From the NCBI GenBank assembly GCA_965116875.1, contig OZ220733.1, positions 3,776,001-3,840,000 on the forward strand: a DNA stretch of 64,000 nt, given 5' to 3'. Both the position numbers and the translations under genes were made by a program. Every line of letters starts with the position of its first letter. The first letter of the stretch is position 1. Shown one piece after another: positions 4,679 through 44,861 of this stretch. The DNA is from Candidatus Latescibacterota bacterium. GTDB taxonomy: Bacteria; Latescibacterota; UBA2968; GCA-2709665. Under the pieces are notes generated by a model. It ran no database searches and was not told the origin of the DNA. It saw only the letters and a list, made by a program, of their open reading frames with translations.

Positions 4679-6112
4679 ATGAGAAATCAGAAACTGAAGC
4701 GACCGTACAAATTCACCCTTAACTTTCTCCTTCTTCAAGGGTGCGTTTTTGTATTTGTCGTTCTTGTCACGTGTGCTCTGGCCATCGGTCAATTCTTGGA
4801 AGTCATCGCACAGCACCCTTGGTTCAGCGTGGTTGTCATTTCCGTGTGGGTGGCCGCGGTATCAGCAGGGTTATTCGTACTTATATTCAATCTGTGCCCT
4901 GTAAAGAAAATACTGGCGTCCGAGTCGAATGCTTACCGAACGGTCCTGGAAGAATTCACTCGTTCCCTCTCCTTAATTACGGATTTCGATGGCTTGCTTG
5001 ACAACCAGATCCGCAAGATTGGGATTCTAACCGATTCCGAACGTCTGTGCATTCTCGTTGCGAGTGAAAGTGGTGAAGATTATACACTCAGGACGAGCCG
5101 CGGATACTTGAAGGCCGACGTAGATGGCATAGCGCTACAGCACCGTGGAGACCTCGTGAGGTGGCTACATACAAACGAGACGCATTTGATTCCTTCGGAG
5201 AATCGTGGGCTCATCGCAAATTTACCTCCTGCGGAACGTGAACTCCTGAACCGGCTAAACGTCACGGGAATCCTCCCATTGGTCACTTTGAACCGGCTAG
5301 TGGGAGTCGTCTTCATCTCTAAGGATAACACCTTGACGCCCGATCAGATCGAAACGGTGCGCTGGTTCACCCCTCAAGTTGCACTTGCCATTGCAAATGC
5401 TATTCTTTACGAACAACAGCGGCTCAGGATGAGTAGCCTGTACCGAACCGAACGCCTCGCGATCACCGGTCAGCTTGCGGCTGGCGCCGCCCACGAAATT
5501 CGCAATCCGCTAGCATCCATACGTAGTACGATACAGTATTTGAGGGGTCGCCTATCTAGTGATTCCGAATCCGCGGATATGATGGGTATGCTAGTTAATG
5601 AGGCGGACCGGATCGAAACCATTGTAAAGGGGATGTTGTCGTTCGCCAGACCGGAGGAACCCAAACTGGAAGTCACCAATCTGACCGAGGTCGCGACACA
5701 GGTCGTCAGCCTCCTCGAACCAACGGCCCACAAGGCTAAGGTGAAAATGGAGACCCACTTCCCACATCAAACCGCCGAGATCTTGGCGGATAAGAATCAA
5801 TTGGGCCAGGTGTTTCTAAACATCCTCCTAAACGCTGTACAAGCCATGCCCGAGGGTGGCTTGCTGTCCATCCGTGTGGCTGCACGGGGTTCCGCAGGTA
5901 TCGATGGATGGCAAGTGGAAGTTGTCGATACTGGCAGCGGTATTCCCGACGAGCAACTTGAGAGTATTTTCGACCCCTTTTACACTACAAAAAAGAAAGG
6001 CACCGGTCTCGGGCTTTCGATCTCACATTCAATCATACGTAGCCACGGTGGAAGAATAGACGTCGAAAGCGCGGTCGGCAAAGGCACCCGTGTAATAGTC
6101 AGATTCTCTTAA
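4679..6112 (+). CDS. Membrane sensor histidine kinase (2 TM, GAF-like, HisKA, HATPase_c)
   Basis: H-box AHEIRNPL, N-box QVFLNILLNA, G1 DTGSGI, F-box FDPFYTTK, G2 GTGLGL. Start re-called at ATG 4679. Confidence 0.92.
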   Translation: MRNQKLKRPYKFTLNFLLLQGCVFVFVVLVTCALAIGQFLEVIAQHPWFSVVVISVWVAAVSAGLFVLIFNLCPVKKILASESNAYRTVLEEFTRSLSLITDFDGLLDNQIRKIGILTDSERLCILVASESGEDYTLRTSRGYLKADVDGIALQHRGDLVRWLHTNETHLIPSENRGLIANLPPAERELLNRLNVTGILPLVTLNRLVGVVFISKDNTLTPDQIETVRWFTPQVALAIANAILYEQQRLRMSSLYRTERLAITGQLAAGAAHEIRNPLASIRSTIQYLRGRLSSDSESADMMGMLVNEADRIETIVKGMLSFARPEEPKLEVTNLTEVATQVVSLLEPTAHKAKVKMETHFPHQTAEILADKNQLGQVFLNILLNAVQAMPEGGLLSIRVAARGSAGIDGWQVEVVDTGSGIPDEQLESIFDPFYTTKKKGTGLGLSISHSIIRSHGGRIDVESAVGKGTRVIVRFS

Positions 6113-6503
6113 GACTTAACCGTGATACTACAAGACCGGATTGCCTGGTTGGTCGGGTTAGATCGCTACGTTACCGGGAAGAATTGCCATACCGTCGAAC
6201 CACGGAACGTGACCAGTCTCCATGCTTCGCTCATTTCCGTTGATTTCAAAAATCGTGGATCTGCGAGATTTATTCGAGGTTGAACTTCCGGGCAAATTGC
6301 AGCGAACATCCACGAGTCTTGTCAGACCAAGATTAGCCGGTACGAGTATTGCGTAGATAAAATGAGTGTGGCGAACCACGAGAACGTGTGGATCATTCAA
6401 TTTTGCCGGCACCGAGCCAGCTGGATATGCCAGAATTCGCTACAATTCGCTTTGTGTTTCTGCGTGCCAAGAGTGAGAAAAACTGTACAGACGGGGGCGA
6501 ATT

Positions 6504-7880
6504 ATGCAACGAGTGTTAGTCGTGGACGACGAAGCCACAATGCGCAGCATACTATTCCGCATACTCACAGAACGAGGTTACGAAGTAGTCGCAGCTCACT
6601 CCGGCGAAAAGGGCCTTGAATTCGCTCAAGAATTCTTGCCCGATGTCGTTGTCATGGACCAGAATCTGCCGGGGATATCCGGCCAGAACGCTACACAGAA
6701 GATAATCGAAATTGTACCAGGCGTAAAAGTCATAATGGTCACGGCGTTTGGTGAAATTGAAAAGGCAGTAGACGCCATGCGGCGAGGTGCTTATGACTAT
6801 CTTACCAAACCCTTCGATAACGATGAGTTTCTGCTTCGAGTCCAGCGTGCCTGCGAGGCCCGGCGTTTGGCCCTTGAAGTGCTGACCCTTCGCGAAGCTC
6901 TCGGTGAACGCCATTCGTTTGATCGAATACTTGGAAATAGTGAATCGTTGCGCGCTGCATTACATCTGGCCAGACGAGCGGCTCAAACCGAAATCTCGGT
7001 TTTAATTGAAGGTGAAAGTGGTTCCGGGAAAGAGCCGTTAGCCCGCGCAATTCACCATGCGAGCTCGCGTTGTAATGGTCCATTTCTACCCGTCAACTGT
7101 GCTGCTGTTCCCACGGACATCGCCGAAAGCCAGTTCTTTGGTCACGAAAAGGGTGCCTTTACTGATGCCAAAAACACCCACATCGGATTGTTTGAACAGG
7201 CCAACAACGGTACCCTCTTCCTTGACGAAGTGGCAGAAATGCCGCTGCGACTCCAGGCCAAACTACTGCGAGCTCTGGAGGATGGCCAAATCACCCGTTT
7301 AGGTGCCAGGTCGGCGGTTCGGATAAACTCGCGTGTAATCGCGGCCACCAATCGAGTCGTCGACGATGCTATCAGGGACGGGCTTCTGCGGCAGGACCTA
7401 TACCACCGCCTTGCCGTCGTAATCATCCACGTTCCACCTCTACGAGAACGCAAAGAGGACATCTCGCTGCTAGCCCGTCATTTTTTGGGCAATTTCAATG
7501 ATGAATCGACAACGAGCCCTTTCGAATTTTCTGACGACGCGCTGGCTGCCCTGGAAGCTTACACCTGGCCTGGCAATATCCGGGAACTTCGCAACGTCGT
7601 CCAGGGTGCCGCCATAATGGCCGAAGGAGATATAATCCGTTGTTGTGACCTACCGCGCAAAGTACGGACCGCTACAGACGGGGGCCCGACGGCCACAGAA
7701 TTAAACCCATCGATCTCAGTTGATGAACCCACCCTGGCCGCCGCCACGGCAACGCTGGAACGCAAACTCATCGCCCAAGCATTGGCCACGAACAATGGCA
7801 ACAGAACCCGATCGGCAAAACGCCTCGGCATAAACCGCAAGACTCTCCTTTCAAAGATTGTGCAATACGGCCTCGAATAG
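6504..7880 (+). CDS. Sigma54-dependent response regulator (NtrC/AtoC family)
   Basis: Receiver VLVVDDE...MDQNLP...KP; Walker A GESGSGKE; GAFTDA; Walker B LFLDEV; WPGNIREL; Fis-type HTH. Confidence 0.95.
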   Translation: MQRVLVVDDEATMRSILFRILTERGYEVVAAHSGEKGLEFAQEFLPDVVVMDQNLPGISGQNATQKIIEIVPGVKVIMVTAFGEIEKAVDAMRRGAYDYLTKPFDNDEFLLRVQRACEARRLALEVLTLREALGERHSFDRILGNSESLRAALHLARRAAQTEISVLIEGESGSGKEPLARAIHHASSRCNGPFLPVNCAAVPTDIAESQFFGHEKGAFTDAKNTHIGLFEQANNGTLFLDEVAEMPLRLQAKLLRALEDGQITRLGARSAVRINSRVIAATNRVVDDAIRDGLLRQDLYHRLAVVIIHVPPLRERKEDISLLARHFLGNFNDESTTSPFEFSDDALAALEAYTWPGNIRELRNVVQGAAIMAEGDIIRCCDLPRKVRTATDGGPTATELNPSISVDEPTLAAATATLERKLIAQALATNNGNRTRSAKRLGINRKTLLSKIVQYGLE

Positions 7881-7986
7881 GCACGACTGCGGCGCCGCTC
7901 CCCGCCTCTGAGTATTTACACCTCACTTACTGGCATTACGCGTCTGGCTTTCTCCATTCATCAACTCGCGAAATCTCCAATTTCAG

Positions 7987-8012
7987 CGTTGAGAAATCCC
8001 TTTTTCTCAACG
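7987..8012. promoter_or_regulatory. 10-bp-arm palindrome upstream of the sigma54 promoter, candidate activator binding site
   Basis: CGTTGAGAAA-tccctt-TTTCTCAACG perfect inverted repeat. Related TTTCTCCA/ATCTCCAA motifs lie at 7949-7980. Confidence 0.45.
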
Positions 8013-8046
8013 AATTGTTCGAACATAAATTCTGATGCAATTCGTG

Positions 8047-8062
8047 TGGCATGGTACTTGCT
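8047..8062 (+). promoter_or_regulatory. Sigma54 (-24/-12) promoter
   Basis: TGGCATGGTACTTGCT, with GG (8048) and GC (8060) exactly 12 nt apart. It lies directly downstream of the sigma54 activator gene and upstream of the ABC cluster. Confidence 0.85.
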
Positions 8063-8452
8063 TCACGCATGTATTCGCTTTCTTAGAATGCCTAGGAAAG
8101 ATACCTTTCGAAAACTATAGAAGTTCCCCGGGTGCCTATAACAGGGCCGTAGGGCGCTCGGAAGATCAGCCGGATGTTAAGCGTGAGTCGCGTGTATGTC
8201 GATCTACGTTGGTGTTCTCTGAGTGCAGTGGACGGGATGAAAATTGCATGATTATGAGAACGATCAGATTGCTGCTTGAGACGACACAAAAGGTCCCTGG
8301 CCTTCGCTATGGCTGCGTTTAGCTTGTGGTACTAAGGCTCCGGATCGACCGGGGGTCTCAAAGAGTCTGAGAGTTCCGGGTATATTTGATAGCCTCCTTG
8401 ATGTGATCCGCGCAAAGCTCACAGAAACGAAGGCTCCGAATTCGGAGGATGA

Positions 8453-9877
8453 ATGATGGTTTTTCATCTTATTCGTAAAGAATTCTTGGAACAGATGCTT
8501 AGTTTTCGATTCATCGTTCTCTCCGCGATGGGGGCATTGGCTATTTGGGTATGCCTCTACAGTGGTTATAACCATTATCGAGAAAGGGTAGATGACTACC
8601 GAATGGCTCAAGCAGCGACTAAGGAACGTATCGAAGAAATCGATGATGCTGAGAATTGGTCCGAATTTGTGTATGTTGGCCACTTGGAACACAAACCACC
8701 TGTACCGACTAGTATCTTTGTGCGTGGACTAGAACCTTTTCTAGGACGATCCATTACCAACGCAACAACAATTCGGAGGCTGAACCGAAGTCCAGCAGAA
8801 ATAACCCCGTTGTTTGGTGTTTTCTCGCCTTTGGATCTTGGACTCATTGTACAAATTGTCCTGAGCTTATTTGCATTATTGTTTACATATGATGCTGTGT
8901 GCGGAGAGAAAGAAGCAGGCTCCTTACGTCTGGTTGCTTCATTTCCGATATCCAAACATCACATATTACTATCGAAATACTTCGGCGCATTGTTTCCACT
9001 GCTTATAGCTTTTGGAATGCCTCTTCTGTTGGGCGTTGCTGTTTTGCTTCTAATGCCTGATGTTCGGTTCACAGAACTTGAGTTGAGTCGTATTGGCCTC
9101 ATATTTATCGCTTGTGGGATCTATGTGTCAGTGTTCACTTGTGTCGGTCTTCTATCCTCCTGTTTGACCCAGAAGGCATCAACATCTTTTGTGCTCTTGC
9201 TAGGATTCTGGGTAACTACCGTGGTAGTGATGCCACGTATCAGTTTAATCATAGCTGATAGCTTTCGAACTGCCCCTTCAGTCTACGAATTGGAAGCAGA
9301 AAAAGAAGCCGTATCAAAGTCAAATGGAGAAAGATGGCGTGAGGTTAGAGCTAGGTGGATAAAGGAGAATCCACAGTGGATGGAAACGCCAGAAGGTAGA
9401 GAAGCTCAACGCCTCTTTTGGAGAAAAACGAGGCAGAAGGTATGGTGGGAACCCAATTTGTCACAGCATGCCCGACTGGATGAGAGTTTTCGTAATCGTT
9501 ATGACGCTCGCCTGAACCTTGCTGTTATCATTGCACGCCTTTCTCCGCCTTTTGCATTCAATAATGCAACCGTAGAACTGGCGGGGACTGGTTTGAGCCG
9601 ACAACGTCGATTCTTGACAACATTCCACCGCTACTATCGACAGTGGTATCAGTGGTTTATTGATTCGGTAGACGATGCCCAGTTGAGACGTATCAATTCG
9701 GTAAAATATGGCGAATATAGATGGGATATATCGGATCTTCCCCGGCTTGTATACAAGGAAATTTGGCCTCAAGAAGATGTACAAACGGCTCTAATTGATA
9801 TCGGTGTCATGTTCCTATGGGGACTAATATTCTTTCTAGGCGCTTATGTGGCGCTGTTAAATTATGACTTTAGATAA
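8453..9877 (+). CDS. ABC-2 type exporter permease with large extracytoplasmic domain (type A copy 1)
   Basis: IRKEFLE, YDAVCGEKEAGSLRL...FPISK..ILLSKY motif, about 6 TM segments, ends YDFR. Confidence 0.88.
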   Translation: MMVFHLIRKEFLEQMLSFRFIVLSAMGALAIWVCLYSGYNHYRERVDDYRMAQAATKERIEEIDDAENWSEFVYVGHLEHKPPVPTSIFVRGLEPFLGRSITNATTIRRLNRSPAEITPLFGVFSPLDLGLIVQIVLSLFALLFTYDAVCGEKEAGSLRLVASFPISKHHILLSKYFGALFPLLIAFGMPLLLGVAVLLLMPDVRFTELELSRIGLIFIACGIYVSVFTCVGLLSSCLTQKASTSFVLLLGFWVTTVVVMPRISLIIADSFRTAPSVYELEAEKEAVSKSNGERWREVRARWIKENPQWMETPEGREAQRLFWRKTRQKVWWEPNLSQHARLDESFRNRYDARLNLAVIIARLSPPFAFNNATVELAGTGLSRQRRFLTTFHRYYRQWYQWFIDSVDDAQLRRINSVKYGEYRWDISDLPRLVYKEIWPQEDVQTALIDIGVMFLWGLIFFLGAYVALLNYDFR

Positions 9878-10056
9878 GAGACGGCCGCCTACACCCCTAG
9901 ACTCTAAACAAGCGGGTTTTTTGAGATTATTATGTACAAAAATACCGGAAAGACTTAACTTGGTTGGAGTTAGCAGTACCAGACGAGAAATCGCTTCCGG
10001 TGAAAAGAGTATCGATAAAGGAAAGCCGCAGGAACAGAGTCAGCCTTGATTCGTCA

Positions 10057-10360
10057 ATGCGCCGTGAAAAGGTGCGGATCATCAGTGGGTGAGACACTCA
10101 CCCGACAAGTGTCGCTGCAGTCGGAAGCAATCGGAGCGGGACGTAGGCAACGGCATCTCCGAAGCCTCCGGTGTAGAGGGTCGCAAGGTGACTCGGCGAG
10201 TATGCAGGCCGTAACGTGAGTGAACGCTGAGCAGGCCTCGAAAAAGGTAATGCGGGAGCCGACCCGTCTGACGATCCGGGAAAGCCGCCGTCGTTGCGGA
10301 AGAGCGCAACGCGTACACCCAACAATCGCGCCGGGTAATGGCGACGTCAAGTATACAAGT
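10057..10360 (+). mobile_element. Truncated group II intron (5' domain I region only; no RT ORF, no domain V/VI)
   Basis: Starts ATGCGCCGTG (GUGCG-like). Contains TCAGTGGGTGAG..CACCCG, GGAAGCAA, GAAGCCTCCGG and GCAGGCCGTAACGTGAGTGAACGCTGAGCAGGCCTCGAAAAAG..GCCGACCCG, recognised as a bacterial group II intron 5' region. It is a GC-rich patch in AT-rich surroundings. Confidence 0.75.
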
Positions 10361-10411
10361 TGATGTCGGTTTTCCAGGAGTGCATCTTCTGGCATTGATT
10401 AAGGTTAGCTT

Positions 10412-11812
10412 ATGTTTGGTCGGCTTGTAAAAAAGGAACTATCGCACTATCTCTTCGACTTCCGGTTTATTGTAGTGTTCGCACTTTGTACTCTACTTTC
10501 TGTCTTGAGTGCTTATGTAGGTACCCAGAATTACATTCGGCAGCTTCAACAATACAATGTAGTATCTGAAAAAAGCCGACGGACCATCCAAATTTCGCTT
10601 GAGAAAAACAGGCTCCAAGACTTAGAGTGGACAGGATATCGCTGGAATAAGAGACCCGAATCGCTCAGTCCAGTTGTCTATGGTCTATCTGGGACATTGG
10701 GGCAGGAAGTACGCATCCAATATCGTAGACATCTACAGTTTGAAGCTAGCCTCTTTGCGACCGATCCCATTCATGCGCTTTTGGGTATACTCGATTTGGC
10801 ATTCATTGTGAAAATCGTCCTTAGTCTTTGCATGCTCCTATTAACTTATGATGCAATTTGTGGAGAAAAGGAAACAGGTACTCTAAGGCTCTATGCTTCG
10901 TTTCCGGTGTCTCGATCTAAACTGGCTTTAGCCAAACTTATCGGTTCATCGATTGCTGTTCTAACGCCATTTGTCTTCTCTTTTTTATCAGCCTCTCTTG
11001 TTCTAATCTTGTCCTCGAGACTTAATCTACAAGGACAAGACTGGATTCGAATAGCGATTCTAGCGGTGCTGTCATCGCTCTATTTGGCTGTCTTCGCCGG
11101 ATTTGGGATTTGGGCATCCGCACTGACCCACAAGCGGATAACTTCATTTTTTGGGCTCCTAGGATTGTGGACGGTCTGGATCTTTATTATACCAAATATG
11201 GCAGTAGATATTGCGAATCACTTGATCCCGGTCGAAAGTGTATATGAATTGGAAAGAAAATATAGCGCACTAAGAGAAGAGATTAGAGAGAGTAGGCAAC
11301 GGGAGGTTGATGACTACAGGCGTCTCGCCCCAACAAGAAACCTCGATGCGTTATCGCCGGAAGAACAGCAAAAAGCCCAAATCGGTCTCAGAAGAATTGA
11401 TACCAAGTGGGATATGCTGTTTTACAGAAGGTTGAACAATATTAGATTGGAATGGCAAAATCAAATGAGCAGGCAGCAACAATTGACATTTATGCTCTCG
11501 GCGATTTCCCCCTTCAGCGCTGTCAGTATTGCATCAATGGATGTGGCTCGTACAAGCTTTGTCCAACAGGAAAAACTTGAGGATGCGCTCAATACTTATC
11601 TTATCTATATGGCTCAGTTTATACAAAAAAAGAAATCTCAAGCAGCGAACCAGAGGATCCTAACTGATTTCTCCCTATTCACCTATCAGGATGATGACAG
11701 ATTAGGGGAATGTCTGTACCGGAATACGTTCCACATTGTGAACCTATGGCTTCTATTGATCCTCGGATTTACTGGGGCATATGTCACGATTTTGCGATAT
11801 GACGTAAGATGA
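10412..11812 (+). CDS. ABC-2 type exporter permease (type B copy 1)
   Basis: VKKEL, YDAICGEKETGTLRL motif, ends YDVR. Paralog of 13514-14926. Confidence 0.88.
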   Translation: MFGRLVKKELSHYLFDFRFIVVFALCTLLSVLSAYVGTQNYIRQLQQYNVVSEKSRRTIQISLEKNRLQDLEWTGYRWNKRPESLSPVVYGLSGTLGQEVRIQYRRHLQFEASLFATDPIHALLGILDLAFIVKIVLSLCMLLLTYDAICGEKETGTLRLYASFPVSRSKLALAKLIGSSIAVLTPFVFSFLSASLVLILSSRLNLQGQDWIRIAILAVLSSLYLAVFAGFGIWASALTHKRITSFFGLLGLWTVWIFIIPNMAVDIANHLIPVESVYELERKYSALREEIRESRQREVDDYRRLAPTRNLDALSPEEQQKAQIGLRRIDTKWDMLFYRRLNNIRLEWQNQMSRQQQLTFMLSAISPFSAVSIASMDVARTSFVQQEKLEDALNTYLIYMAQFIQKKKSQAANQRILTDFSLFTYQDDDRLGECLYRNTFHIVNLWLLLILGFTGAYVTILRYDVR

Positions 11813-11963
11813 CCATTCTCTAAAGAGGCTTATCACGTTCGGTTCTATTGAGCTTCACATAAGTCAGTTTATAAGTCGAACCCGATTCCTCGATACGTAC
11901 TTTTGGACGGCTCGGAACATACGGAAGGCCATATCCCCGAGTAACAACCAATTGGAGTGATAT

Positions 11964-13400
11964 ATGCTCGGTTGCGTTATACGGAAAGAGATTCTGGACC
12001 ACATATTGAGCCTTCGGTATCTGATACTTTCAGTGATCGCGGCGCTGGTGGTTTTGCTTAGCCTCTATAGCGGCTACACGTACTATCAATCTAGCCTGGA
12101 GAACTACCGCTTGGCAGAAACGGCGACCGATAATCGCATCCGACAATTGCTGGATTGTGATGATTGGCTGGAGTTAGACGCTATGGGATTTAAGATTCAC
12201 AAGCCGCCAACTCCTATGAGTATCTTTGTTCGTGGATTGGAACCGGCACTCGGGCGAACGGTACTAATTTCCGGTGGCGGAAAACAACTGCCTGCCCGTA
12301 GCCCCGAGTCGGTTGAGCCTTCCCTCGCGGTGTTTCCTCTCCTGGACTTAGGGTTGATTGTCCAGATTGTCCTGAGCCTTTTTATTTTGTTGTTGACCTA
12401 CGATTTGGTGTGTGGAGAAAAGGAAAATGGCACACTGCGATTGATCGCCGCCTTTCCAATTTCGAAAGCGAAACTACTTCTGGGCAAGTTTTTGGGGATC
12501 TATATTCCCACGCTCGTCTCCATTTTTCTACCCTTGCTACTTGGCTTGGCTGCTGTCCTGATGGCCCCCGAAGCAGAGTTCACAGAATTGGAACTAATCC
12601 ATCTGGTGCTCATATTATTGACTATTGGTACCTACCTCTTCACCTTCACAAGCGCCGGAATCTTTGCTTCATGTCTCGCCGGGCGCTCAGCTACGGCATT
12701 TGTCGTCCTTCTCAGCTTCTGGGTCGTCACCGTTGTTGTGCTGCCTCGTTTGAGTCTCATCGTCGCCGACAGCGTCAGTCCAGCACCGTCCTTTTACAAT
12801 CTTATTACAGAAAAGGCAGCTGTTGCAATGGCCGACCTGGAGGCGCGTTACGAACGCCACCGGAACTGGCAGGATGACTATCAGCGGGTCAACGGCGTTG
12901 AGTGGCATAACACTCCCGAGGGTCGGGAGGCATACCAACTATTTTTCGCGCGGACCCGGCGTGAAGCCCGTACGCATACCTTCAAACAGTGGGAACGGCT
13001 GGACGAAGCCTTTCAGAACCGATACAACGCTCGGCTGGACCTGGCAATGTACTTGGCACGACTTTCACCAACATTTGCCTTCAACAACGCAGTAGTCCGG
13101 CTTGCTGGCGTTGGTTGGGAGCCCCAGCACAGGTTCAAGGTGGCAGGCGAGCGGTTTTGGAAGAAATACCGCGCGTGGTTCGCCCGGACGAAGACCCGCG
13201 ACCGACTTAGACTCGCTCATCCAGAAAAATACGGTGAATATCAATGGGACGTCTCGGACATGCCCCGGTTTTTCTTTCAAGAACGATGGCACAGTGAAGA
13301 CGTGCGGTTCGCTCTATTGGACGTTGGCATTTTAGCCATTTGGGGTATCCTGTTCTTCGCCGGTGCATTCTTCACCATCCTGCGTTATGATGTGAGGTAA
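11964..13400 (+). CDS. ABC-2 type exporter permease (type A copy 2)
   Basis: Shares HKPP, SIFVRGLEP, TPEGREA and KYGEY.WD.SD.PR with 8453-9877. Ends YDVR. Confidence 0.88.
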   Translation: MLGCVIRKEILDHILSLRYLILSVIAALVVLLSLYSGYTYYQSSLENYRLAETATDNRIRQLLDCDDWLELDAMGFKIHKPPTPMSIFVRGLEPALGRTVLISGGGKQLPARSPESVEPSLAVFPLLDLGLIVQIVLSLFILLLTYDLVCGEKENGTLRLIAAFPISKAKLLLGKFLGIYIPTLVSIFLPLLLGLAAVLMAPEAEFTELELIHLVLILLTIGTYLFTFTSAGIFASCLAGRSATAFVVLLSFWVVTVVVLPRLSLIVADSVSPAPSFYNLITEKAAVAMADLEARYERHRNWQDDYQRVNGVEWHNTPEGREAYQLFFARTRREARTHTFKQWERLDEAFQNRYNARLDLAMYLARLSPTFAFNNAVVRLAGVGWEPQHRFKVAGERFWKKYRAWFARTKTRDRLRLAHPEKYGEYQWDVSDMPRFFFQERWHSEDVRFALLDVGILAIWGILFFAGAFFTILRYDVR

Positions 13401-13513
13401 GATGTTGGAATGGTAACTGGACCATTCCGCCCATCTTAAGTATTCCAATAACATGGGATTCCGTAGGAGGTCCAGACGCTGTTGAATGACTGTCAAGTTT
13501 TGGGGAGTCTCCT

Positions 13514-14926
13514 ATGTTCGGTCACCTTGTCCAGAAGGAACTTCGTCACTACATGCTCGATTTCCGTTTCGTTGCAATATTCGTCCTTTGCGCGTTGCTG
13601 TCGAGCCTTAGTGTCTATGTGGGTGGCGAGAAACATCGTCAGCAACTTCGGGAATATATGACAGTCTCTCAAAGTAACCAGGACAGGCTTAGGACCACTC
13701 TGGAGAAAGGATACATTTCCAATTTATGGTGGTTTGGTTACAATTGGAACCGAAGACCCGAAATGCTCAGCCCGCTGGTATATGGCCTCTCCGGAAAACT
13801 AGGGCAGGAAGTCAACCTTCACGCCCAAAGGCCCGTCGAGTTTGAGGGTAGTTCTTTTGAGACTGATCCAGTTCATGCTCTCTTTGGTGTTCTCGACTTG
13901 GACTTTATTGTAAAGATTGTCCTTAGTTTGTGTGTTCTGTTACTAACCTACGATTCAATCTGCGGCGAGAAAGAAGCAGGAACATTGAGACTTTACGCCT
14001 CATTCTCCGTATCTCGGTCCAAGCTAGCTATTGCCAAGCTCGTTGGATCAACTCTGGCGATCGTCGTTCCCCTCTTATTTGCCTTCTTGCTGGCCTCGGC
14101 TGTGTTAGCCCTTTCTCCAAGTGTTAGCTTACAAGTCCAGGATTGGATGAGAATAGTCGCCTTGACGGGCGTTTTCGTCCTCTATTTGATGGTATTCATT
14201 GCGTTCGGGCTTTGGATGTCTGCTTCGACCCATCGTCGAATGACGGCCTTTTTGAGCCTTTTGTGTTTGTGGACCGTCTGGATCTTTGTAGTTCCGGATA
14301 TAGCGGTACGCTTTGCCCGTTACCTGTCTCCGGTAGAAAGCATCTACAACATGGAAAAACGGATTGACACAATTCGCTGGGAAATGCGGGAACGTAAAGT
14401 GGAAGAGATACGGGCTTATCAGGAACGCGTACGTGTCGAAAACAGGGATGCTAATACACTTGCGCAGCAGGCAGAGGCTGAAAGTGTTCACCGTGCAGCG
14501 TTCAAGTCGATTCGAAAAAAGTGGAACCTGCAATACTATCGAAGTATGTCGGACCTGCAAGCAGTCAGGCTCCGCCAGATGCAAAAGCAGCGGGATCTTC
14601 TCGCTGTACTTTCGTCCCTCTCTCCACTAGGCGCGATCAGTTTTACTTCCATGGACATTGCCCGCACTGGACCTATTCAGCAAGCGCGGATCTTAGAGGT
14701 GATGAGCCCACACCTGGTCTATCTCGATTCATTTATTCAAGAAAATTGGATACTACCTTCTGAAATGCGTGATCTGACTGACTTTTCCCAATTCACCTAT
14801 CGGGACACAGACACACTTGGGGATTGCATCTCACGGAATGCATTCCATATTCTGAACTTGGTGCTCCTTGTACTGGTGGGTTTTGCGGGCGCGTATATGG
14901 CTCTGGTTAGATACGATGTTAGATAA
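13514..14926 (+). CDS. ABC-2 type exporter permease (type B copy 2)
   Basis: Shares WN.RPE.LSP.VYGLSG.LGQEV and TDP.HAL with 10412-11812. Ends YDVR. Confidence 0.88.
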   Translation: MFGHLVQKELRHYMLDFRFVAIFVLCALLSSLSVYVGGEKHRQQLREYMTVSQSNQDRLRTTLEKGYISNLWWFGYNWNRRPEMLSPLVYGLSGKLGQEVNLHAQRPVEFEGSSFETDPVHALFGVLDLDFIVKIVLSLCVLLLTYDSICGEKEAGTLRLYASFSVSRSKLAIAKLVGSTLAIVVPLLFAFLLASAVLALSPSVSLQVQDWMRIVALTGVFVLYLMVFIAFGLWMSASTHRRMTAFLSLLCLWTVWIFVVPDIAVRFARYLSPVESIYNMEKRIDTIRWEMRERKVEEIRAYQERVRVENRDANTLAQQAEAESVHRAAFKSIRKKWNLQYYRSMSDLQAVRLRQMQKQRDLLAVLSSLSPLGAISFTSMDIARTGPIQQARILEVMSPHLVYLDSFIQENWILPSEMRDLTDFSQFTYRDTDTLGDCISRNAFHILNLVLLVLVGFAGAYMALVRYDVR

Positions 14927-15002
14927 GTGGTTCGAACAGAAACATCGGTAGTTGTTCCCCTGTGCATCAATATAGAGTGAGACAACTCCTCCTCCGAGGC
15001 CA

Positions 15003-16670
15003 ATGTCATATATTGGGCAGAGTGGAGAGGACGGGATGAGGCCAAGAACCGATGTATTAGATTATAGCGGAGAGCAGTCTCCGGTTCTGCAGGTCCCGTG
15101 CGGGATCTCAGGGAAGGCGATGGCTTATCCGAAGGTGCCGGAGGTCTCGGAATGCCGTCGGATCACCTTGCCGTTGCTCGTCTCGATGCTTTCGATCCTA
15201 TTCATTCACCTTCCCGGTTACGGTCAGTATTTTACTGAACGTAACGACGAGACGTATCTGATCCTCGCCCTGAAAAAGCAAAAAGCCCGTTTCGACGCAG
15301 CAAGGGTCGAATACGCAGCGGCATTGGAACTTAAACAAAGAAGCCTGATCGCGCTGAACGAATTTGAACGAATCAAGACAAACTACATAAATGAAGAGAT
15401 CAGCTACCAGCAGGCGATGCTACGCGTGATCTTCGATCAGCCCCATATCCTCATCGAAAAAGCGATCAAATATCAGGCCGAAGACGGCAAAAAGCGCGTG
15501 CGGCTCACCCTTAAAAACACGACGGGCGGCGTGGCCGACTATGAAAAACTGGTGCAGACCGATGACAGCGTATTCGATCCCTCGCTTCAGCCTGACAAGA
15601 TCAATAACGTGTTTATTTCTCTGCACGAAAGCGCGGAAGCCGGCGGCGTCGGCCCAATCATCAGTCAGCCTTACGAAGACAAGATTGAAACCCTTGGGTT
15701 TGGGGATTCAGCGCACGTCGATTTCCTCTTGCTCAAAGACGTCGAGGAAGTGATCGTGAGCATGACGTATGCGGGCGCCACGGACCGAAAACATATCTAC
15801 CTGCAAAAGGATACAAGCGCCAACCGCGTGCTTGTCTCCTCGCCGAACTTCTCCCAGGAGTCCTATCTGGGCGAAAGTGCCACCTACTCGCTGCAACTTG
15901 AGCGCTTCTCCAACGAAAACGACGTATTCCGTCTGGCTGTGGTCAACCTGCCCCGTCAAATCACGTACAACTTCCTCGACCCCACCTCAGTACCGATCCA
16001 ACGACTATCTCAAGTCAACTTCACGCAGGGTGTCACCAGCAAACAACTTGCACTTACAGCCTACCTTCCAGAACGGTCGGACGTACAGGTGGGAATCGAC
16101 AAGACCATCACGTTCTATGCGTTGGTCTTGCCCCAGGAAGTCTGGCAAGACGTGCAGCCCTTGGACAATAAGACCTTCAGCGAAAAGGAAGTTGACGGTC
16201 TCGACGCAGGTAAGGTAAAACTGGAACTCATTCCGCGCGGCGTCGGCCGGATCGAAGTTCGGGCACTGAATCTATACCATGAGATCGAAACGGATGGGGA
16301 TGTCACCATGGAAATCACTGTCCTCAATGATGGCAGCAGGCGGCTGGACAACATTCGCATCCGTACCAATATGCCGCCCAAGTGGCAGTCAGATATCCAC
16401 CCAGATGTTATCTCCGAGTTGATGCCGGCCGAAGAACTCACCGTCAAACTGCAATTCCTGCCGCCCGAAAACGTCGAAGTCGGCGACTATGAGATTCAGA
16501 TCCAGACACAGGCGCTGGCGGACAACCGTCCAGTGCAAACGCAGGACAAAACCGTGCGCATTCACGTCAACGCCCTTACCAACCTCTGGTTGAGCGCGTT
16601 CATCGTTCTTTGCGTAATCGGCGTGCTCGTCGGCATTATATGGTATTCAATCAAACTTACCAGACGTTAG
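15003..16670 (+). CDS. Exported NEW3 (NPCBM_assoc)/Ig-like domain protein with N-terminal coiled-coil hairpin and C-terminal TM anchor
   Basis: Hydrophobic signal-like segment (LPLLVSMLSILFIHLPGYG), helical hairpin, Ig-like C-terminal domain (VLNDG...PPKW...L.P.E..TV...PP...VGDY), then a TM helix and KLTRR. Start probably downstream (15120 or later). Confidence 0.75.
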   Translation: MSYIGQSGEDGMRPRTDVLDYSGEQSPVLQVPCGISGKAMAYPKVPEVSECRRITLPLLVSMLSILFIHLPGYGQYFTERNDETYLILALKKQKARFDAARVEYAAALELKQRSLIALNEFERIKTNYINEEISYQQAMLRVIFDQPHILIEKAIKYQAEDGKKRVRLTLKNTTGGVADYEKLVQTDDSVFDPSLQPDKINNVFISLHESAEAGGVGPIISQPYEDKIETLGFGDSAHVDFLLLKDVEEVIVSMTYAGATDRKHIYLQKDTSANRVLVSSPNFSQESYLGESATYSLQLERFSNENDVFRLAVVNLPRQITYNFLDPTSVPIQRLSQVNFTQGVTSKQLALTAYLPERSDVQVGIDKTITFYALVLPQEVWQDVQPLDNKTFSEKEVDGLDAGKVKLELIPRGVGRIEVRALNLYHEIETDGDVTMEITVLNDGSRRLDNIRIRTNMPPKWQSDIHPDVISELMPAEELTVKLQFLPPENVEVGDYEIQIQTQALADNRPVQTQDKTVRIHVNALTNLWLSAFIVLCVIGVLVGIIWYSIKLTRR

Positions 16671-16779
16671 CGCTAGTCCCCTTGCCTTCTGTCTCGCCGA
16701 ACGGGCGGCAATTCTGCTGATTGGCGGGTTTTATTGCCCTTCCCACTTCGGGGGAGCGGACGGGCGTGTCCAAGATAAA

Positions 16780-17550
16780 ATGGAGGTTTCAATGATCGAA
16801 GCCATCGATCTGACGAAGCGGTACGAAGACGGGATACTCGCATTGGACCACCTTAACCTAAAGGTCGCACCGGGGGAGATATTCTGCTTGCTCGGCGCCA
16901 ACGGCGCGGGCAAATCCACCGCGATTAACCTGATGTTGAACTTTATAGAGCCGACCGAAGGCACGGCCAAAATCAACGACATCGATGTCACCCGCGAACC
17001 GCTGGAAGCCAAGAAGTATGTGGCCTACCTGTCGGAAAACGTCAGTTTGTATAGCAACTTTACTGCCCGGCAGAACCTGGAGTTCTTCGCCGGCTTGGCC
17101 GGGAAACAGACTGACCTTGAAGGCTACTATAAGATCCTGCGGAGAGTGGGTTTGCCGGAAAACTCATTCGAGAAACGGATTAAAGAATTCTCAAAGGGGA
17201 TGCGCCAAAAGGTAGGTATAGCCATTGTCATCATTCGGGACGCGCGCGCAGTCATAATGGACGAGCCTACCTCTGGTCTTGATCCGCAAGCCGGCGCCGA
17301 ATTCTTGCATCTACTGGAAGAACTGAGAGGCGAAGGCAGGGCAGTTTTCATGTCGACCCACGACATCTTTCGGGCTCGCACACTTGCGGACAGGGTAGGC
17401 ATCATGAAATCGGGGCGCTTGATAAGCGAACGCACCCGCGGTGAACTGGAATACGAAGACCTGGAGGAACTCTATCTCGATTACATGTACGGCACAAACA
17501 AGGGAAGGGACCAGATTGAAAAGCCGCTCGTCAGAGAGCAGCCGCAATGA
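16780..17550 (+). CDS. ABC transporter ATP-binding protein
   Basis: GANGAGKST, FSKGMRQK, MDEPTSGLD, STHD. Confidence 0.95.
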   Translation: MEVSMIEAIDLTKRYEDGILALDHLNLKVAPGEIFCLLGANGAGKSTAINLMLNFIEPTEGTAKINDIDVTREPLEAKKYVAYLSENVSLYSNFTARQNLEFFAGLAGKQTDLEGYYKILRRVGLPENSFEKRIKEFSKGMRQKVGIAIVIIRDARAVIMDEPTSGLDPQAGAEFLHLLEELRGEGRAVFMSTHDIFRARTLADRVGIMKSGRLISERTRGELEYEDLEELYLDYMYGTNKGRDQIEKPLVREQPQ

Positions 17551-17752: not shown

Positions 17753-17781
17753 TTGACAATTTCCATTAAAGTAGATAGTTT
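17753..17781 (+). promoter_or_regulatory. Sigma70-type promoter
   Basis: TTGACA (17753-17758), 17 nt, TAGTTT (17776-17781), in an AT-rich intergenic region. Confidence 0.6.
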
Positions 17782-17900
17782 AGGCATTCTAATGCGGATA
17801 GATTATTCTCTAAATTGACCGCCTTCTGCTCTTCGTGACCGAGCCGACATGAAGTCAGTCGGTTAAGAACTCGAAACGCAAGTCGTTGAGGAATTCACCC

Positions 17901-18008
17901 ATGTGTTCGATTTCTGTTAATTTGACGATAGCAAACTTGGTACTTTATCGTGTACCCATTGCCGCTAAGCACGGCGAAACTCGAAAGGCGCGATGCGGTT
18001 TGGTATAA
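17901..18008 (+). CDS. Candidate 35-aa small ORF/leader peptide MCSISVNLTIANLVLYRVPIAAKHGETRKARCGLV
   Basis: GAGGA RBS 8 nt before the ATG. Lies between the promoter and an intrinsic terminator. Below the ORF-track size cut-off. Confidence 0.35.
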   Translation: MCSISVNLTIANLVLYRVPIAAKHGETRKARCGLV

Positions 18009-18031
18009 ATTCAGAAACAGTACGAATTCCC

Positions 18032-18068
18032 GCCGCCATCGATGCCGATTCGATGGCGGCTTTTATTT
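18032..18068 (+). terminator. Intrinsic terminator in the leader of the second ABC operon (possible attenuator)
   Basis: GCCGCCATCGA-tgccgat-TCGATGGCGGC followed by TTTTATTT. Confidence 0.8.
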
Positions 18069-18217: not shown

Positions 18218-19222
18218 ATGCCAATCATCGTTGTTGACAATCTGACAAAGGAATACCGGAGGATGAAGCGAACGGCTGGCCTGGCGGGTTCCATCCGAAG
18301 CCTGTTTTCGCGCGAGTATGAGACAATACTCGCTGTCAATGATGTCTCTTTCCACGTTGAAGTAGGCGAGGTTGTCGGCTATATCGGCGCAAACGGCGCG
18401 GGTAAGTCTACGACGATTAAAATGCTTGTGGGAATCCTTGTCCCGACGTCCGGCCTTGTCACGGTGCGCGGTCTGGTGCCGCACGAAAACAGAGTTGAGA
18501 ATGCAAAAAAAATGGGGGTTGTTTTTGGGCAGAGAACACAGTTATGGTGGGATATTCCCGTATCCGAGTCATTGAACCTGATGCGTCACATGTTTAAAAT
18601 CCCCGAAAAGCGTTTCAACGAAAACATCGCTCTCTTTGGGAATATCCTCGATCTGAGGGAATTTATCGACACGCCTGTCCGCCAACTCAGTCTCGGACAA
18701 CGAATGAGAGCGGATATCTGTGCGGCATTATTGCACGATCCCGACATTTTATATCTGGATGAGCCTACAATCGGATTGGACGTCGTTGCGAAGGAACGCA
18801 TCAGGGAGTTCATTAAGAGCGTGAATCGTGAAAGAGGCACAACCGTTATCCTGACCACGCATGACATGTCGGATATTGAAAAGCTCTGCTCAAGAGTCAT
18901 GGTGATCGATAAGGGCAGCGTTGTCTACGATGGCCAGTTACAGCAGCTCAAGGAGAAATATGGGACCGAAGAGACGCTGACGATTGAAACCGATGGCGGT
19001 TCAATAGATGATAAGGATCTACGCGAATTGGGCATCCAGGACGTCAACCGCCAGGGTAACAGGTACATATTCCGATATGACAAACGAAAGGTGACTTCCT
19101 CTTCTTTGATTCAATTTGTCCTGGATCACTGTCAAATACGTGATTTTGACGTCCAACAAGCTGAAATCGAGGAAGTGATTCGCCGGTTGTACTTGAGTAT
19201 GGCTGACCGCAGACACGGTTAA
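18218..19222 (+). CDS. ABC exporter ATP-binding protein (COG4586-like)
   Basis: GANGAGKSTTIKML, VVFGQRTQLWWD, LSLGQRMR, LDEPTIGLD, TTHDM. Confidence 0.93.
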   Translation: MPIIVVDNLTKEYRRMKRTAGLAGSIRSLFSREYETILAVNDVSFHVEVGEVVGYIGANGAGKSTTIKMLVGILVPTSGLVTVRGLVPHENRVENAKKMGVVFGQRTQLWWDIPVSESLNLMRHMFKIPEKRFNENIALFGNILDLREFIDTPVRQLSLGQRMRADICAALLHDPDILYLDEPTIGLDVVAKERIREFIKSVNRERGTTVILTTHDMSDIEKLCSRVMVIDKGSVVYDGQLQQLKEKYGTEETLTIETDGGSIDDKDLRELGIQDVNRQGNRYIFRYDKRKVTSSSLIQFVLDHCQIRDFDVQQAEIEEVIRRLYLSMADRRHG

Positions 19223-19310
19223 TCTGCCTGATTGAACAGGGAGCGTACACGAGTCCGCCCCGTCTTATGGATGGGTTCGCATTGACTCAGGCGTCAGAAT
19301 CGATTCCAAA

Positions 19311-20114
19311 ATGCGAGTATACTTCGAGTTTATAAAAAATGGAGCGCAGACCGAACTGGCATACAGAATGAGCGTTTTTCTTCGGATCGCCAGTCAACTG
19401 TTCATTCTTGTCGTGAGAGTCGCAATGTGGAACGCATTGCTGAAGGCAGCAGGTGGTGGGGTTGCCACGGACATGGGGTACGTGAATCTTGAAGATATGA
19501 TGACTTACAATGTGATGAGTTCGGTAGCGACAATATTGATATCGACAACCGTCCTCAATGAAGTCGACGAGAAAATCAAGTCAGGCCAGGTCAGTATTGA
19601 CCTGATCAGACCCTTCAACTTTAAAGGATCCCTGTTTTGCTCGACAATCGGCACAAACTCCGTGAAGGCGTTGATAGAAGCGTTACCTCTCTTTATTGTT
19701 TCATTTCTGCTCTATGACATAAGCGTACCATCGTTGAAATATCTGCTCTTATCCCTGTTTTGTCTTGTCAACGCCCTGGTTTTGCTCTTCATGCTCAATT
19801 ATGTGCTCGGATTACTGGGATTCTGGTATCTCTCGGTGTGGCAGTTCAGGATGATTGTCGGGATGCTAATCATGATTCTGGGCGGGCAACAGATACCGCT
19901 CTGGTTTTTTCCTGACTATCTTGTCGATGTCTCTGCATACCTTCCCTTCAGGCTGGTTTACTTTGCTCCTTTATCGATATTTCTTGAAAAGATATCGTTG
20001 ATAGATTCGCTAAGTTTGATTCTTCAGCAATTTCTGTGGATCGGATTTCTTATCCTCATAGAAAAAACGGTCTGGTCCAGAGGAATTAGAAAGCTCGTTA
20101 TTCAGGGAGGCTAG
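19311..20114 (+). CDS. ABC-2 family permease (ABC2_membrane_6, COG4587-like), copy 1
   Basis: AYR, IKSGQVSIDLIRP, PLWFFP, LPF, C-terminal IQGG. Confidence 0.88.
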   Translation: MRVYFEFIKNGAQTELAYRMSVFLRIASQLFILVVRVAMWNALLKAAGGGVATDMGYVNLEDMMTYNVMSSVATILISTTVLNEVDEKIKSGQVSIDLIRPFNFKGSLFCSTIGTNSVKALIEALPLFIVSFLLYDISVPSLKYLLLSLFCLVNALVLLFMLNYVLGLLGFWYLSVWQFRMIVGMLIMILGGQQIPLWFFPDYLVDVSAYLPFRLVYFAPLSIFLEKISLIDSLSLILQQFLWIGFLILIEKTVWSRGIRKLVIQGG

Positions 20115-20116
20115 AA

Positions 20117-20941
20117 GTGGGCAACCTTCCGTTGTATCGTGGGTTTATTACCGCCCATATGAAGGCCCAGATGGAGTATCGATTCGGGTTTTTCGTAGAA
20201 CATTTCGTCTTAATGTTGTACTATTGCATTTCATATTTGGGCCTCTGGATTGTCCTTGAGAAATTTCAGACGATCGCTGGCTGGACATTCTATGAAGTAT
20301 TGCTTCTTTTCAGCCTCAACCTCTTTGCGTACTCCCTGAGCAGTTTCTTCTTCGGGTTTGGATCCATGCGCAATATGGACAGCCTTGTCCAACAAGGAAC
20401 GTTTGATAGCGTGTTGATTTTTCCCCTGAATCCGTTGGTACACCTCGCATTGAAACACTTCTCAAATAACTATGTCGCTCATTCGGTCCTCTGCATCGTA
20501 ATCTTCGTCGTGTGTTTCGAAGAATTGGATATCAAACTTGGACTCCTGGATGTCCTGCTTTTTTGTGTAGTCTTGATAGGTGGCGCGTTGATTCAGGCTG
20601 CGGCGATGATATCGACAGGAACGATCAGCTTCTGGTTTGTCAGGTCGACGTCCGCGGTAGACGGGGCAATGCAACACACGGCGAAATTTGTGGACTATCC
20701 GATTATAATCTATCAACGGTGGGTTCAGGTCGTTTTGACTTTCGTACTTCCGTTTGCGTTTATCAGTTTCTACCCTGCAGAGACGTTTCTCGGTCGAAAC
20801 AACACCTCTGTTCTACATGGTATTTTGATTTTCGACCCGCTGTTTCAATTCGGAACGCCATTGGTCGGGGCAGTCCTGTTTTTTCTCGCGTACGTGTTCT
20901 GGAAGTGGGGAATCAACCACTATCAGAGTACCGGTACTTGA
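20117..20941 (+). CDS. ABC-2 family permease (ABC2_membrane_6, COG3694-like), copy 1
   Basis: EYR, GWTFYE, G.FD..L..P.NP, YP..IY, ends YQSTGT. Confidence 0.88.
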   Translation: MGNLPLYRGFITAHMKAQMEYRFGFFVEHFVLMLYYCISYLGLWIVLEKFQTIAGWTFYEVLLLFSLNLFAYSLSSFFFGFGSMRNMDSLVQQGTFDSVLIFPLNPLVHLALKHFSNNYVAHSVLCIVIFVVCFEELDIKLGLLDVLLFCVVLIGGALIQAAAMISTGTISFWFVRSTSAVDGAMQHTAKFVDYPIIIYQRWVQVVLTFVLPFAFISFYPAETFLGRNNTSVLHGILIFDPLFQFGTPLVGAVLFFLAYVFWKWGINHYQSTGT

Positions 20942-20967
20942 ACTTGTCGATCAGGTAGTCACATAAA

Positions 20968-22026
20968 ATGGCGAAAGTCCCTTCCATACTCAGGTTTGCA
21001 GTCCGTGCAATGGTGGTACTGTTCCTGGTGTCGACCGTTCTGTGGCTCGTGAAGATCGACCAGGTTGCAGTCGGCGAGGGGCTCGTTAGTGCTGAACGCG
21101 AATCCTGGATTGGTTCCCGCGTTGAAGCTCGCGTAGAGTCCGTCCTGATCAAAGAAGGCGAAATGGTAGCTCTCGGCGACACATTGGTTAAACTGGATGG
21201 TTCAATTGCCAGGCTTCAATTGGACGAAGCCAAACATTCGTACAGAACGGCTATTGCCGAACGGGAGGTCAGTCGCGCTGAGATTGAGATCCTGGAAACT
21301 CCCCTGTCCGGGAATATTATCGCCGTACTTCAATCTGAATTGCGATCTTCAAGAGAACAACTGGATCACGCCGAGGGTCAACTTCGCAGAGAACGCGAAC
21401 TGATGATGCGTGGCGGGCTTACGTCTGCAGAGGAGCTGGCGGATGCCGTCTTGGACTCCAAGTTAACGGCCCTTCGGGTTCAGAAAATCGCATCCAAAAT
21501 AGCTGCCGAACAGGAGGAACCGGTCGCTGCACGTATACGGAAGGCTCGTTTCGACCTGCAAGCCAATCAGGCTCTCGTCCGCAAAGCCGAGGTTGAAATC
21601 TTAAAGAAAAGCAGGAACTTAGCCGACCACGCTCTCGTTGCTCCTGATTCTGGACGGATTCATCTGGTATTGGTCAGGAGGGGCGATATGGTCGCTGTGG
21701 GAGACTCTCTTCTATTGCTTGTGCCGAATGGACGTAAGTATGCGAAATGTATGGTGCCGGCAAAATTCGGGCCCTGGTTGGAGGTGGGACAGAGAGTGAT
21801 GATTTCGCCTGTCTGGGAACGGTCGTACGAGCTATCCGGACAGGTCAATTCCGTACGTCGCCATGTCGAAAAAGACCACCTCTCGGTGCTGGTTGACGTG
21901 AGTTTTGACTCGCCCCCTCCGCTGACGCTGGGCGACAAAATCAGAGTTGAAATAACACTTAGACGGAGTGGTTTGTTAAAGCTTCTATTATTCCCTTTCG
22001 AGTGGGAACAGGCCACAACATGGTAA
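20968..22026 (+). CDS. HlyD-family membrane fusion protein, copy 1
   Basis: N-terminal TM, lipoyl-like V.EG..V..GD.L..LD, long coiled-coil hairpin, AP..G.I...V..GD.V..G. Confidence 0.85.
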   Translation: MAKVPSILRFAVRAMVVLFLVSTVLWLVKIDQVAVGEGLVSAERESWIGSRVEARVESVLIKEGEMVALGDTLVKLDGSIARLQLDEAKHSYRTAIAEREVSRAEIEILETPLSGNIIAVLQSELRSSREQLDHAEGQLRRERELMMRGGLTSAEELADAVLDSKLTALRVQKIASKIAAEQEEPVAARIRKARFDLQANQALVRKAEVEILKKSRNLADHALVAPDSGRIHLVLVRRGDMVAVGDSLLLLVPNGRKYAKCMVPAKFGPWLEVGQRVMISPVWERSYELSGQVNSVRRHVEKDHLSVLVDVSFDSPPPLTLGDKIRVEITLRRSGLLKLLLFPFEWEQATTW

Positions 22027-22124
22027 GAATGTGAGAACTCGTAACGCGTGCGCGTGTCGAGTTTTGCAACGCAAGAGATGTGCCTGGCCGGGTACACCTG
22101 AACCGTCTCACGGGCGGCCATGAA

Positions 22125-22925: not shown

Positions 22926-22926
22926 G

Positions 22927-23748: not shown

Positions 23749-23769
23749 TCTCCTGCGGGTTTTGATACC

Positions 23770-44702: not shown

Positions 44703-44861
44703 CGGGTAGACTCAAGACGGGAGTGGGGAGAGATTACCTGCCTCGTGAGATTTCCTTTTGTGCCTGAGGCAACGAGGAATGAATTATAGGGCAATGATTC
44801 CGTCTACCGTCTCCCCACTCTTTTTCCTTCTTCCTTCTTCCTTCTACTTCCCCTCTACCCG
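44703..44861. repeat. Repeat family A copy 6 (diverged); supplies the TAG stop of the RND gene
   Basis: GGGTAGAC..AAGACGGGAG.GGGGAGAGATTACCTGCCTCGTG...GGCAA...TCTACCGTCTCCCC...CTCTACCCG. Confidence 0.75.

Follow-up and report, generated by a model that had tools for sequence, protein, structure and literature searches.

A predicted sigma54-controlled ABC gene unit in Candidatus Latescibacterota with a hairpin-tipped, C-terminally anchored Ig-stalk protein as candidate inverted adaptor

The window, a 64,000-nt stretch of contig OZ220733.1 (positions 3,776,001 to 3,840,000, forward strand) from a Candidatus Latescibacterota bacterium, carries a plus-strand unit that encodes a GAF-like histidine kinase, a sigma54-dependent response regulator, four ATP-binding cassette (ABC) permeases, a protein with a NEW3 domain (the NEW3 protein) and a single ATPase (Table 1). 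An earlier note, made by a model from the letters of the window, had listed these genes, and every one of them is found in its place. The GC content of the unit is 0.45–0.54 compared with about 0.60–0.65 around it, and radC is nearby, which suggests an acquired island. The closest loci are 89–93% identical and come from metagenome-assembled genomes labelled Latescibacterota or Gemmatimonadota. Altogether 304 GTDB stretches encode a relative of the NEW3 protein. Neighbourhood counts given below refer to the best 80 of these 304, in which L007 and L009 are identical copies within one genome; the permease, ATPase, TolC, PDZ, regulator and HlyD counts use profiles built from the same loci. The hairpin-NEW3 family comprises 275 clusters (50% identity, E ≤ 1e-30), and culturable relatives include Draconibacterium and Prosthecochloris species.

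Table 1. Genes and sequence features of the unit, in window coordinates
Feature	Position	Strand	Evidence or remark
Histidine kinase, two transmembrane helices, GAF-like	4679..6112	+	Pfam GAF (weak, E 0.005), HisKA, HATPase_c
Sigma54-dependent response regulator, REC-AAA-HTH	6504..7880	+	Related regulator adjoins 19/80 loci
10-bp inverted repeat, candidate activator binding site	7987..8012	+	
Predicted sigma54 -24/-12 promoter TGGCATGGTACTTGC	8047..8061	+	1 mismatch to consensus
Permease A, NosY-like type V ABC transmembrane domain, two periplasmic helical inserts	8453..9877	+	Pfam PF12679, DUF3526
Group II intron D1-D4 remnant between A and B	10083..10219, within 9886-10244	+	Rfam RF02003, 82.6 bits
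Permease B	10412..11812	+	Pfam, identity comparison
Permease A'	11964..13400	+	48% identical to A
Permease B'	13514..14926	+	51% identical to B
Hairpin-Ig-stalk (NEW3) protein, 516 aa, proposed inverted periplasmic adaptor	15120..16670	+	
Predicted cleaved signal peptide	15120..15224	+	Cleavage predicted from sequence
MFP-type α-hairpin, residues 44-104	15249..15431	+	Tip residues A67, L71 and A78 (15318-15353) correspond to RLS
Three Ig-like domains, the last NEW3 (PF10633)	15441..16574	+	Pfam, AlphaFold2 model
C-terminal transmembrane anchor, then basic cytoplasmic tail	16584..16652	+	
Single ABC ATPase	16780..17550, start probably 16792	+	Walker A/B, signature, D-loop and H-loop present

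The open reading frame (ORF) of the NEW3 protein runs from 15003 but is probably annotated too long in this form. The likely start is the ATG at 15120, because homologues are about 500 residues long and begin with a signal peptide that ends before a conserved Gln. Residue −1 to this Gln is Ala, Gly, Ser or Cys in 110 of 115 homologues, resembling a signal-peptidase-I site. The median 19-residue hydropathy over 115 homologues is 1.86 for the N-terminal segment versus 3.08 for the C-terminal transmembrane helix. The AlphaFold2 model, computed with 118 sequences (mean pLDDT 90.3), contains helices at residues 44–73 and 79–104, three β-sandwich domains of immunoglobulin (Ig) type and a C-terminal helix. 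The antiparallel hairpin that the earlier note expected of the N-terminal segment appears in the model as a helix-turn-helix and matches the hairpins of membrane fusion proteins (MFPs). The exact architecture occurs in 98 of 149 representatives and the hairpin in 104 of the 107 that are complete at both ends, counts that are descriptive only, since the profiles derive from the same sequence set. The first Ig domain is repeated in six of these 104, with two to three copies in P0127, P0130, P0135, P0153, P0202 and P0233, which suggests from the sequences that the height of the stalk may be adjustable. With the whole model, Foldseek returns only generic multi-Ig matches (TM-score 0.17–0.28), and no solute-binding-protein fold is found in the structure search. 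In one 892-residue record, P0206, a permease is fused to the full hairpin protein.

The hairpin is homologous to those of MFPs. A family profile of 116 diverse members, run against PDB sequences, gives 27 matches at E ≤ 1. Nineteen of them are MFP hairpins from about eight different proteins, including MexA, MacA, AcrA, MexJ and ZneB (best E 8e-6); six are NEW3-type Ig domains and two are marginal. The only match other than MFPs on the hairpin region is ataxin-3, with E 0.97. As a control, the helical region of the permease profile retrieves generic coiled coils, with no MFP among 14 matches. When the model is compared with 48,161 chains, three of the 50 matches listed are confined to the hairpin and all three are adaptors (4L8J, MexA and EmrA); 4L8J aligns over 66 residues with Z 10.4 and an rmsd of 1.6 Å. 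Homologues P0045 and P0121 match the CzcB adaptor model TIGR00999 (E 1–2e-5), and 8 of 120 homologues carry a precomputed assignment to PF25893, which we take to be the CzcB hairpin family. The earlier note had likened the hairpin tip to those of two HlyD proteins encoded downstream. The general likeness to MFP hairpins is strong, but the direct match to these two proteins is weak: the window HlyD proteins score E ~4 against the hairpin hidden Markov model, and hhalign aligns the hairpin of the second with E 0.005 and gives no hairpin match for the first.

The gene neighbourhoods connect this protein with ABC permeases and, in part, with TolC. Permeases are found in 70/80 loci, the cognate ATPase in 61/80, TolC in 20/80, a tandem-PDZ gene in 18/80, the sigma54 regulator in 19/80 and HlyD in 2/80. 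Of the 39 loci flanked by 5 kb or more in both directions, 37 have a permease, 38 the ATPase, 8 TolC and 10 PDZ. The linkage of NEW3 homologues to such permeases, on which the earlier proposal depended, holds in these 70 loci. All 20 TolC genes lie upstream of the NEW3 gene, on the same strand and within ~0.5 kb, one with an intervening short ORF. They belong to two subfamilies (Pfam OEP, E 6e-38 and 1e-28) and never share a locus with a PDZ gene. One 21-member clade has TolC in 17 of the 17 loci with upstream DNA. Within the 20 TolC loci, no MFP-family match is found in 68 ORFs of 200–650 aa, nor in 12 of the 15 longer ORFs (the other 3 were left out as near-copies). In the remaining 60 loci, none of 70 scanned ORFs matches MFP or TolC at E ≤ 1e-6; of 208 candidates, 78 passed a filter for hydrophobic starts, and removing 8 near-copies or parts of the known downstream system left these 70. 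Of 120 TolC homologues, 24 are apparently co-resident with a NEW3 homologue, where 0.7 would be expected by chance; the figure is circumstantial, and 2 of the 24 look spurious. The correlation between NEW3 and TolC distances (r 0.57, 0/2000 permutations, 39 pairs) was not counted as co-evolution, because shared ancestry explains it.

Other neighbours differ between lineages. The PDZ gene, for example L047:9165-9980 and that of 17 other loci, lies directly upstream of the NEW3 gene and encodes a signal peptide with one or two DegP-like PDZ domains; these loci mostly carry a divergent two-component system that is not of the sigma54 type. The DegP-like neighbour hints at a peptide or protein cargo in this lineage. 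At L013:8369-11782 and L016:11493-15095, the NEW3 gene is separated from the ATPase/permease genes by a type IV ABC exporter, two hydrolases of the exosortase-associated type and a small gene that is presumably AcpS-like from its sequence pattern. The hydrolases and the type IV exporter hint at a metabolite cargo in another lineage.

The hairpin tip can be compared with the pattern RxxxLxxxxxxS, given as a TolC-binding motif in the available text of PMC3391258. In the 116 diverse sequences the tip has R in 61, L in 104 and S or T in 95. The R is distributed unevenly, occurring in 0/20 TolC-linked hairpins, 16/18 PDZ-linked hairpins and 22/42 others. One reading, confounded by ancestry, is that members with the R rely on a housekeeping TolC and the others have co-diverged with a dedicated TolC. 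Throughout the window's clade L71 is kept and the hairpin is intact.

All four permeases are ABC2_membrane_2/DUF3526-like. They alternate between two types, as the earlier note had seen, with identities of 27–28% across types and the within-type values listed in Table 1. The shared YD(V/F)R ending that it had also pointed out is present in all of them (YDFR, YDVR, YDVR and YDVR), but it is not special to this locus, because YDVR is the commonest permease ending across the family (89/162). The AlphaFold2 model of permease A (pLDDT 94.7) has a type V fold and is closest to NosY, with Z 25.8, an rmsd of 2.8 Å over 255 residues and a profile E of 5e-18; ABCG/ABCA-type folds follow. The modelled membrane domain has the six-helix fold and the coupling helix expected of type V, and the coupling segment is kept in 4/4 permeases. 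Transmembrane helix (TM) 1 reaches on into the periplasm, and TM5 is followed by ~170 residues of helical insert. Permeases A and B are most divergent in their periplasmic parts, at 15–17% identity compared with 42% in TM2–5, which would fit different cargo or partner surfaces. The A-then-B gene order, kept in the window's clade, suggests pairing as A/B heterodimers. The division into A and B does not extend through the whole family; duplication of pairs took place independently in separate lineages, and some loci have one permease. The sequence predicts an inner-membrane ABC transporter with intact ATPase motifs. At least four permeases are encoded in 17/80 loci and two cognate ATPases in 0/80, so the sharing of one ATPase by several permeases, noticed earlier in the window, is conserved. 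Permease B is interrupted in L010 by ~1.8 kb of inserted DNA (L010:4430-6252), and in L007 and L009 the permeases are fragmented upstream of the NEW3 gene.

The unit appears to be under sigma54 control. The kinase is 35–42% identical over ~400 aa to kinases that adjoin related loci, including TolC-bearing ones. The -24/-12 promoter proposed in the earlier note is borne out at the sequence level: TGGCATGGTACTTGC is the sole 1-mismatch site among 11 window sites at ≤2 mismatches. L006 and L010, the two closest loci, both retain it, with perfect consensus in L010, and both arms of the 10-bp inverted repeat are altered together in these two loci. In the 61 of the 80 loci with sufficient upstream DNA, -24/-12 sites occur upstream of 9/19 loci with a sigma54 regulator, 0/18 PDZ loci and 5/24 others, with a background of 4% in random windows. 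The site and the linked enhancer-binding activator together define a predicted sigma54-dependent operon. Scans for sigma70 promoters and terminators are overall at chance level. A weak terminator-like hairpin, of a kind found at chance frequency overall, lies between the NEW3 gene and the ATPase gene (16713-16728, +) and could lower the ATPase relative to the adaptor.

Among known systems, MacAB-TolC (type VII) is alike in its ABC motor with a large periplasmic head and may be so in its RLS-type adaptor hairpin and its TolC exit duct; mechanotransmission is described as a plausible model for it in the accessible part of PMC8277102. Unlike MacB, the membrane domain here is a six-TM, NosY-like type V domain (Z 25.8 with NosY versus 7.7 with MacB), and no FtsX or MacB_PCD Pfam match is found in the window permeases. 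Unlike MacA, the NEW3 protein has Ig-like domains instead of lipoyl, β-barrel and membrane-proximal domains and is anchored at its C-terminus. It shares with canonical adaptors (AcrA, MexA, EmrA, CzcB/ZneB and HlyD) the homologous hairpin of ~60 residues, and members of its family carry the tip motif to varying degrees. In these adaptors, as far as the available texts of PMC4446572 and PMC13328181 describe them, the chain is anchored N-terminally by a TM helix or lipid, includes lipoyl and barrel domains and runs out and back with the hairpin at its centre; in the NEW3 protein a linear Ig stalk carries the hairpin at its N-terminal end. Around the hairpin no lipoyl or β-barrel domain is found; the MFP matches end within residues 40–106, and Ig sandwiches follow. 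At the N-terminus there is no predicted TM anchor or lipobox, and a strong TM helix is predicted at the C-terminus instead. By architecture the NEW3 protein falls outside the MFP family, because it is without the lipoyl and barrel domains and its anchor is at the opposite end.

Three further systems are informative. NosDFY offers the closest solved membrane domain; it differs in that NosY, with 276 aa, is without the two helical periplasmic inserts, and its partner is NosD with no TolC. In E. coli, YbhS and YbhR are of the ABC-2 type, and YbhG is a normal MFP. YbhG-YbhFSR resembles the unit in having two different membrane subunits plus an adaptor (available portions of PMC13739795 and PMC8277102), but it uses that normal MFP and a fused double ATPase and has neither multiple permease pairs nor an Ig stalk. 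COG1470/NEW3 proteins beside archaeal and bacterial ABC genes match the Ig stalk over residues ~95–493 (TM-score 0.47–0.56 by target, homologue P0045), and the ABC neighbourhood is documented for one archaeal protein in the accessible text of PMC10667668. They have no hairpin, and the structural matches omit the hairpin region. For ABC transporters in tripartite assemblies, the available parts of three reviews name only type IV and type VII (PMC4446572, PMC13328181, PMC8277102). Literature searches, mostly without subscription papers or supplements, returned no description of such a unit or adaptor architecture. The unit is probably a tripartite ABC exporter whose modelled adaptor architecture is unmatched in the literature searched, and whose assembly as a complex we infer.

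The best explanation, in our judgement a reasonably likely one, is a sigma54-induced, ATP-driven trans-envelope exporter with an inverted adaptor. We hold with good confidence that the hairpin-NEW3 protein acts as an adaptor at the level of the family; for the window locus itself, working through such an adaptor is favoured with more reserve. The tripartite machine of the earlier note, in which the NEW3 protein replaces the MFP, is partly supported by the hairpin homology, the permease linkage and the TolC genes of the 20 loci, but no TolC accompanies it in the window's island or in the 11-locus clade. In the proposed mechanism, the signal peptide would be cleaved and the protein would stand on its C-terminal helix beside a permease dimer (A-B or A'-B'). 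It would oligomerise, probably as a hexamer by analogy to MacA, with the Ig stalks encircling the permease towers and the hairpins building a tube that docks tip-to-tip on the TolC trimer. For the window locus, the TolC partner would be encoded elsewhere in the genome. An ATPase dimer would drive the permease dimer, and the stroke would pass through the periplasmic helices in a MacB-like mechanotransmission. Cargo, most likely taken up on the periplasmic side, would be expelled across the outer membrane, and the alternative permease pairs would probably alter the cargo range.

Several observations weigh against this explanation. Hairpin adaptors also occur in Gram-positive bacteria, which have no TolC (available text of PMC4446572), and two loci of the family are labelled Eubacteriales (L079) and archaeon (L020), labels that are unverified. 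A Z near 10 is modest for helices and may reflect a common arrangement, and the window NEW3 protein alone matches no MFP model. Its tip, A-L-A, is degenerate relative to RLS, and the R is missing from all 20 TolC-linked tips. The hairpin is absent in P0177, P0178 and P0254, 3 of the 107 complete representatives. The fusion P0206 is a single, N-terminally incomplete record, and longer fused forms (969–2765 aa) are absent among 8000 candidates, which is weak evidence. An adjacent TolC is missing from 60/80 loci, including all 11 of the window's clade, and none is found in the island or the other scanned ORFs of the window. On a quick IQ-TREE tree of 76 rows (5 short loci excluded), the TolC loci fall in two lineages, which suggests about two origins rather than 20 events; the window's 11-locus clade is sister to one of these lineages.

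An alternative we consider unlikely is a machine confined to the periplasm, in which the hairpins only oligomerise into a funnel or cage and the permeases move a periplasmic partner, such as the PDZ protein, with no outer-membrane channel. NosDFY, the closest solved relative, moves a periplasmic partner rather than transporting. The many loci without adjacent TolC agree with such a machine, as do the tandem-PDZ gene at the TolC position in 18 of them and the hairpin-bearing adaptors of Gram-positives. TolC genes directly upstream in 20 loci, from two subfamilies and with no MFP found there, are not expected from it, and the PDZ-linked tips keep the R in 16/18, as expected for docking to a housekeeping TolC.

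Alternatively, the family may consist of TolC adaptors whose tip has decayed in the window lineage, leaving the locus ductless or borrowing the two downstream HlyD proteins. The A-L-A tip, the 11-locus clade without adjacent TolC, the relatives L007, L009 and L010 broken by mobile elements, and the position of the two HlyD genes 4–8 kb downstream would all suit this reading, which we nevertheless find distinctly improbable: the hairpin is intact with L71 kept across the clade, and HlyD, found in 2/80 loci, is part of another system, of the ABC2_membrane_6 type, which is preceded by a terminator-like stem of 11 bp. That system has no TolC gene, so a TolC in trans would be required anyway. The downstream HlyD proteins were ruled out as a general partner by their presence in 2/80 loci only. 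Least probable is the conventional annotation as an ABC importer or sensor with NEW3 as a membrane-anchored carbohydrate-binding subunit, which draws on NEW3 domains in glycosidases (sialidase matches in the PDB profile search) and on the sugar-transport role suggested for an archaeal NEW3 protein beside ABC genes (accessible text of PMC10667668), but meets an exporter-type permease fold, no solute-binding-protein fold and no sugar-enzyme family recurring in more than three loci, and accounts for neither the MFP hairpin nor the neighbouring TolC.

Other features of the window are as follows. The remnant of a group II intron that lies between the genes of permeases A and B, overlooked by the earlier note, is common to L006 and L010 at 83–84%, lies in a region without a long ORF and is not part of the machine. 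The second exporter (18218-24825, +) consists of one ATPase followed by two sets of two ABC2_membrane_6 permeases with an HlyD-type adaptor. It contains no TolC gene, again combines a single motor with duplicated permease pairs, and among the 80 loci is found only in L006 and L010. Before it, the region 17753-18060 (+) has a TTGACA box at 17753 and, at 18032-18060, the terminator-like 11-bp stem and its T run, ~160 nt ahead of the second ATPase. It is a possible attenuator leader and has no Rfam match. An AcrB-family resistance-nodulation-division (RND) gene lies at 44855-47980 (-), with no adjoining MFP or TolC gene detected among the scanned ORFs, and a tRNA gene with a long variable arm at 52173-52257 (-, Rfam RF00005).

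For the family as a whole, we give an even chance to a second class of TolC adaptor, in which the MFP docking hairpin is grafted as a portable module atop a COG1470-type, C-anchored Ig stalk of tunable height (the first Ig domain in 1–3 copies) and makes a NosY-like ABC machine a trans-envelope exporter. Up to three or more interchangeable permease pairs may share one motor and one adaptor in such systems, which would extend over Bacteroidota, Ignavibacteriota, KSB1, Zixibacteria, Latescibacterota and Gemmatimonadota and would possibly pump periplasmic peptides or proteins delivered by the PDZ protein. If this is true, a tail-anchored Ig-stalk adaptor would mean that the hairpin tip alone is a portable TolC-docking module. 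It would also give a function to an unannotated family and explain TolC genes without an MFP neighbour in these phyla.

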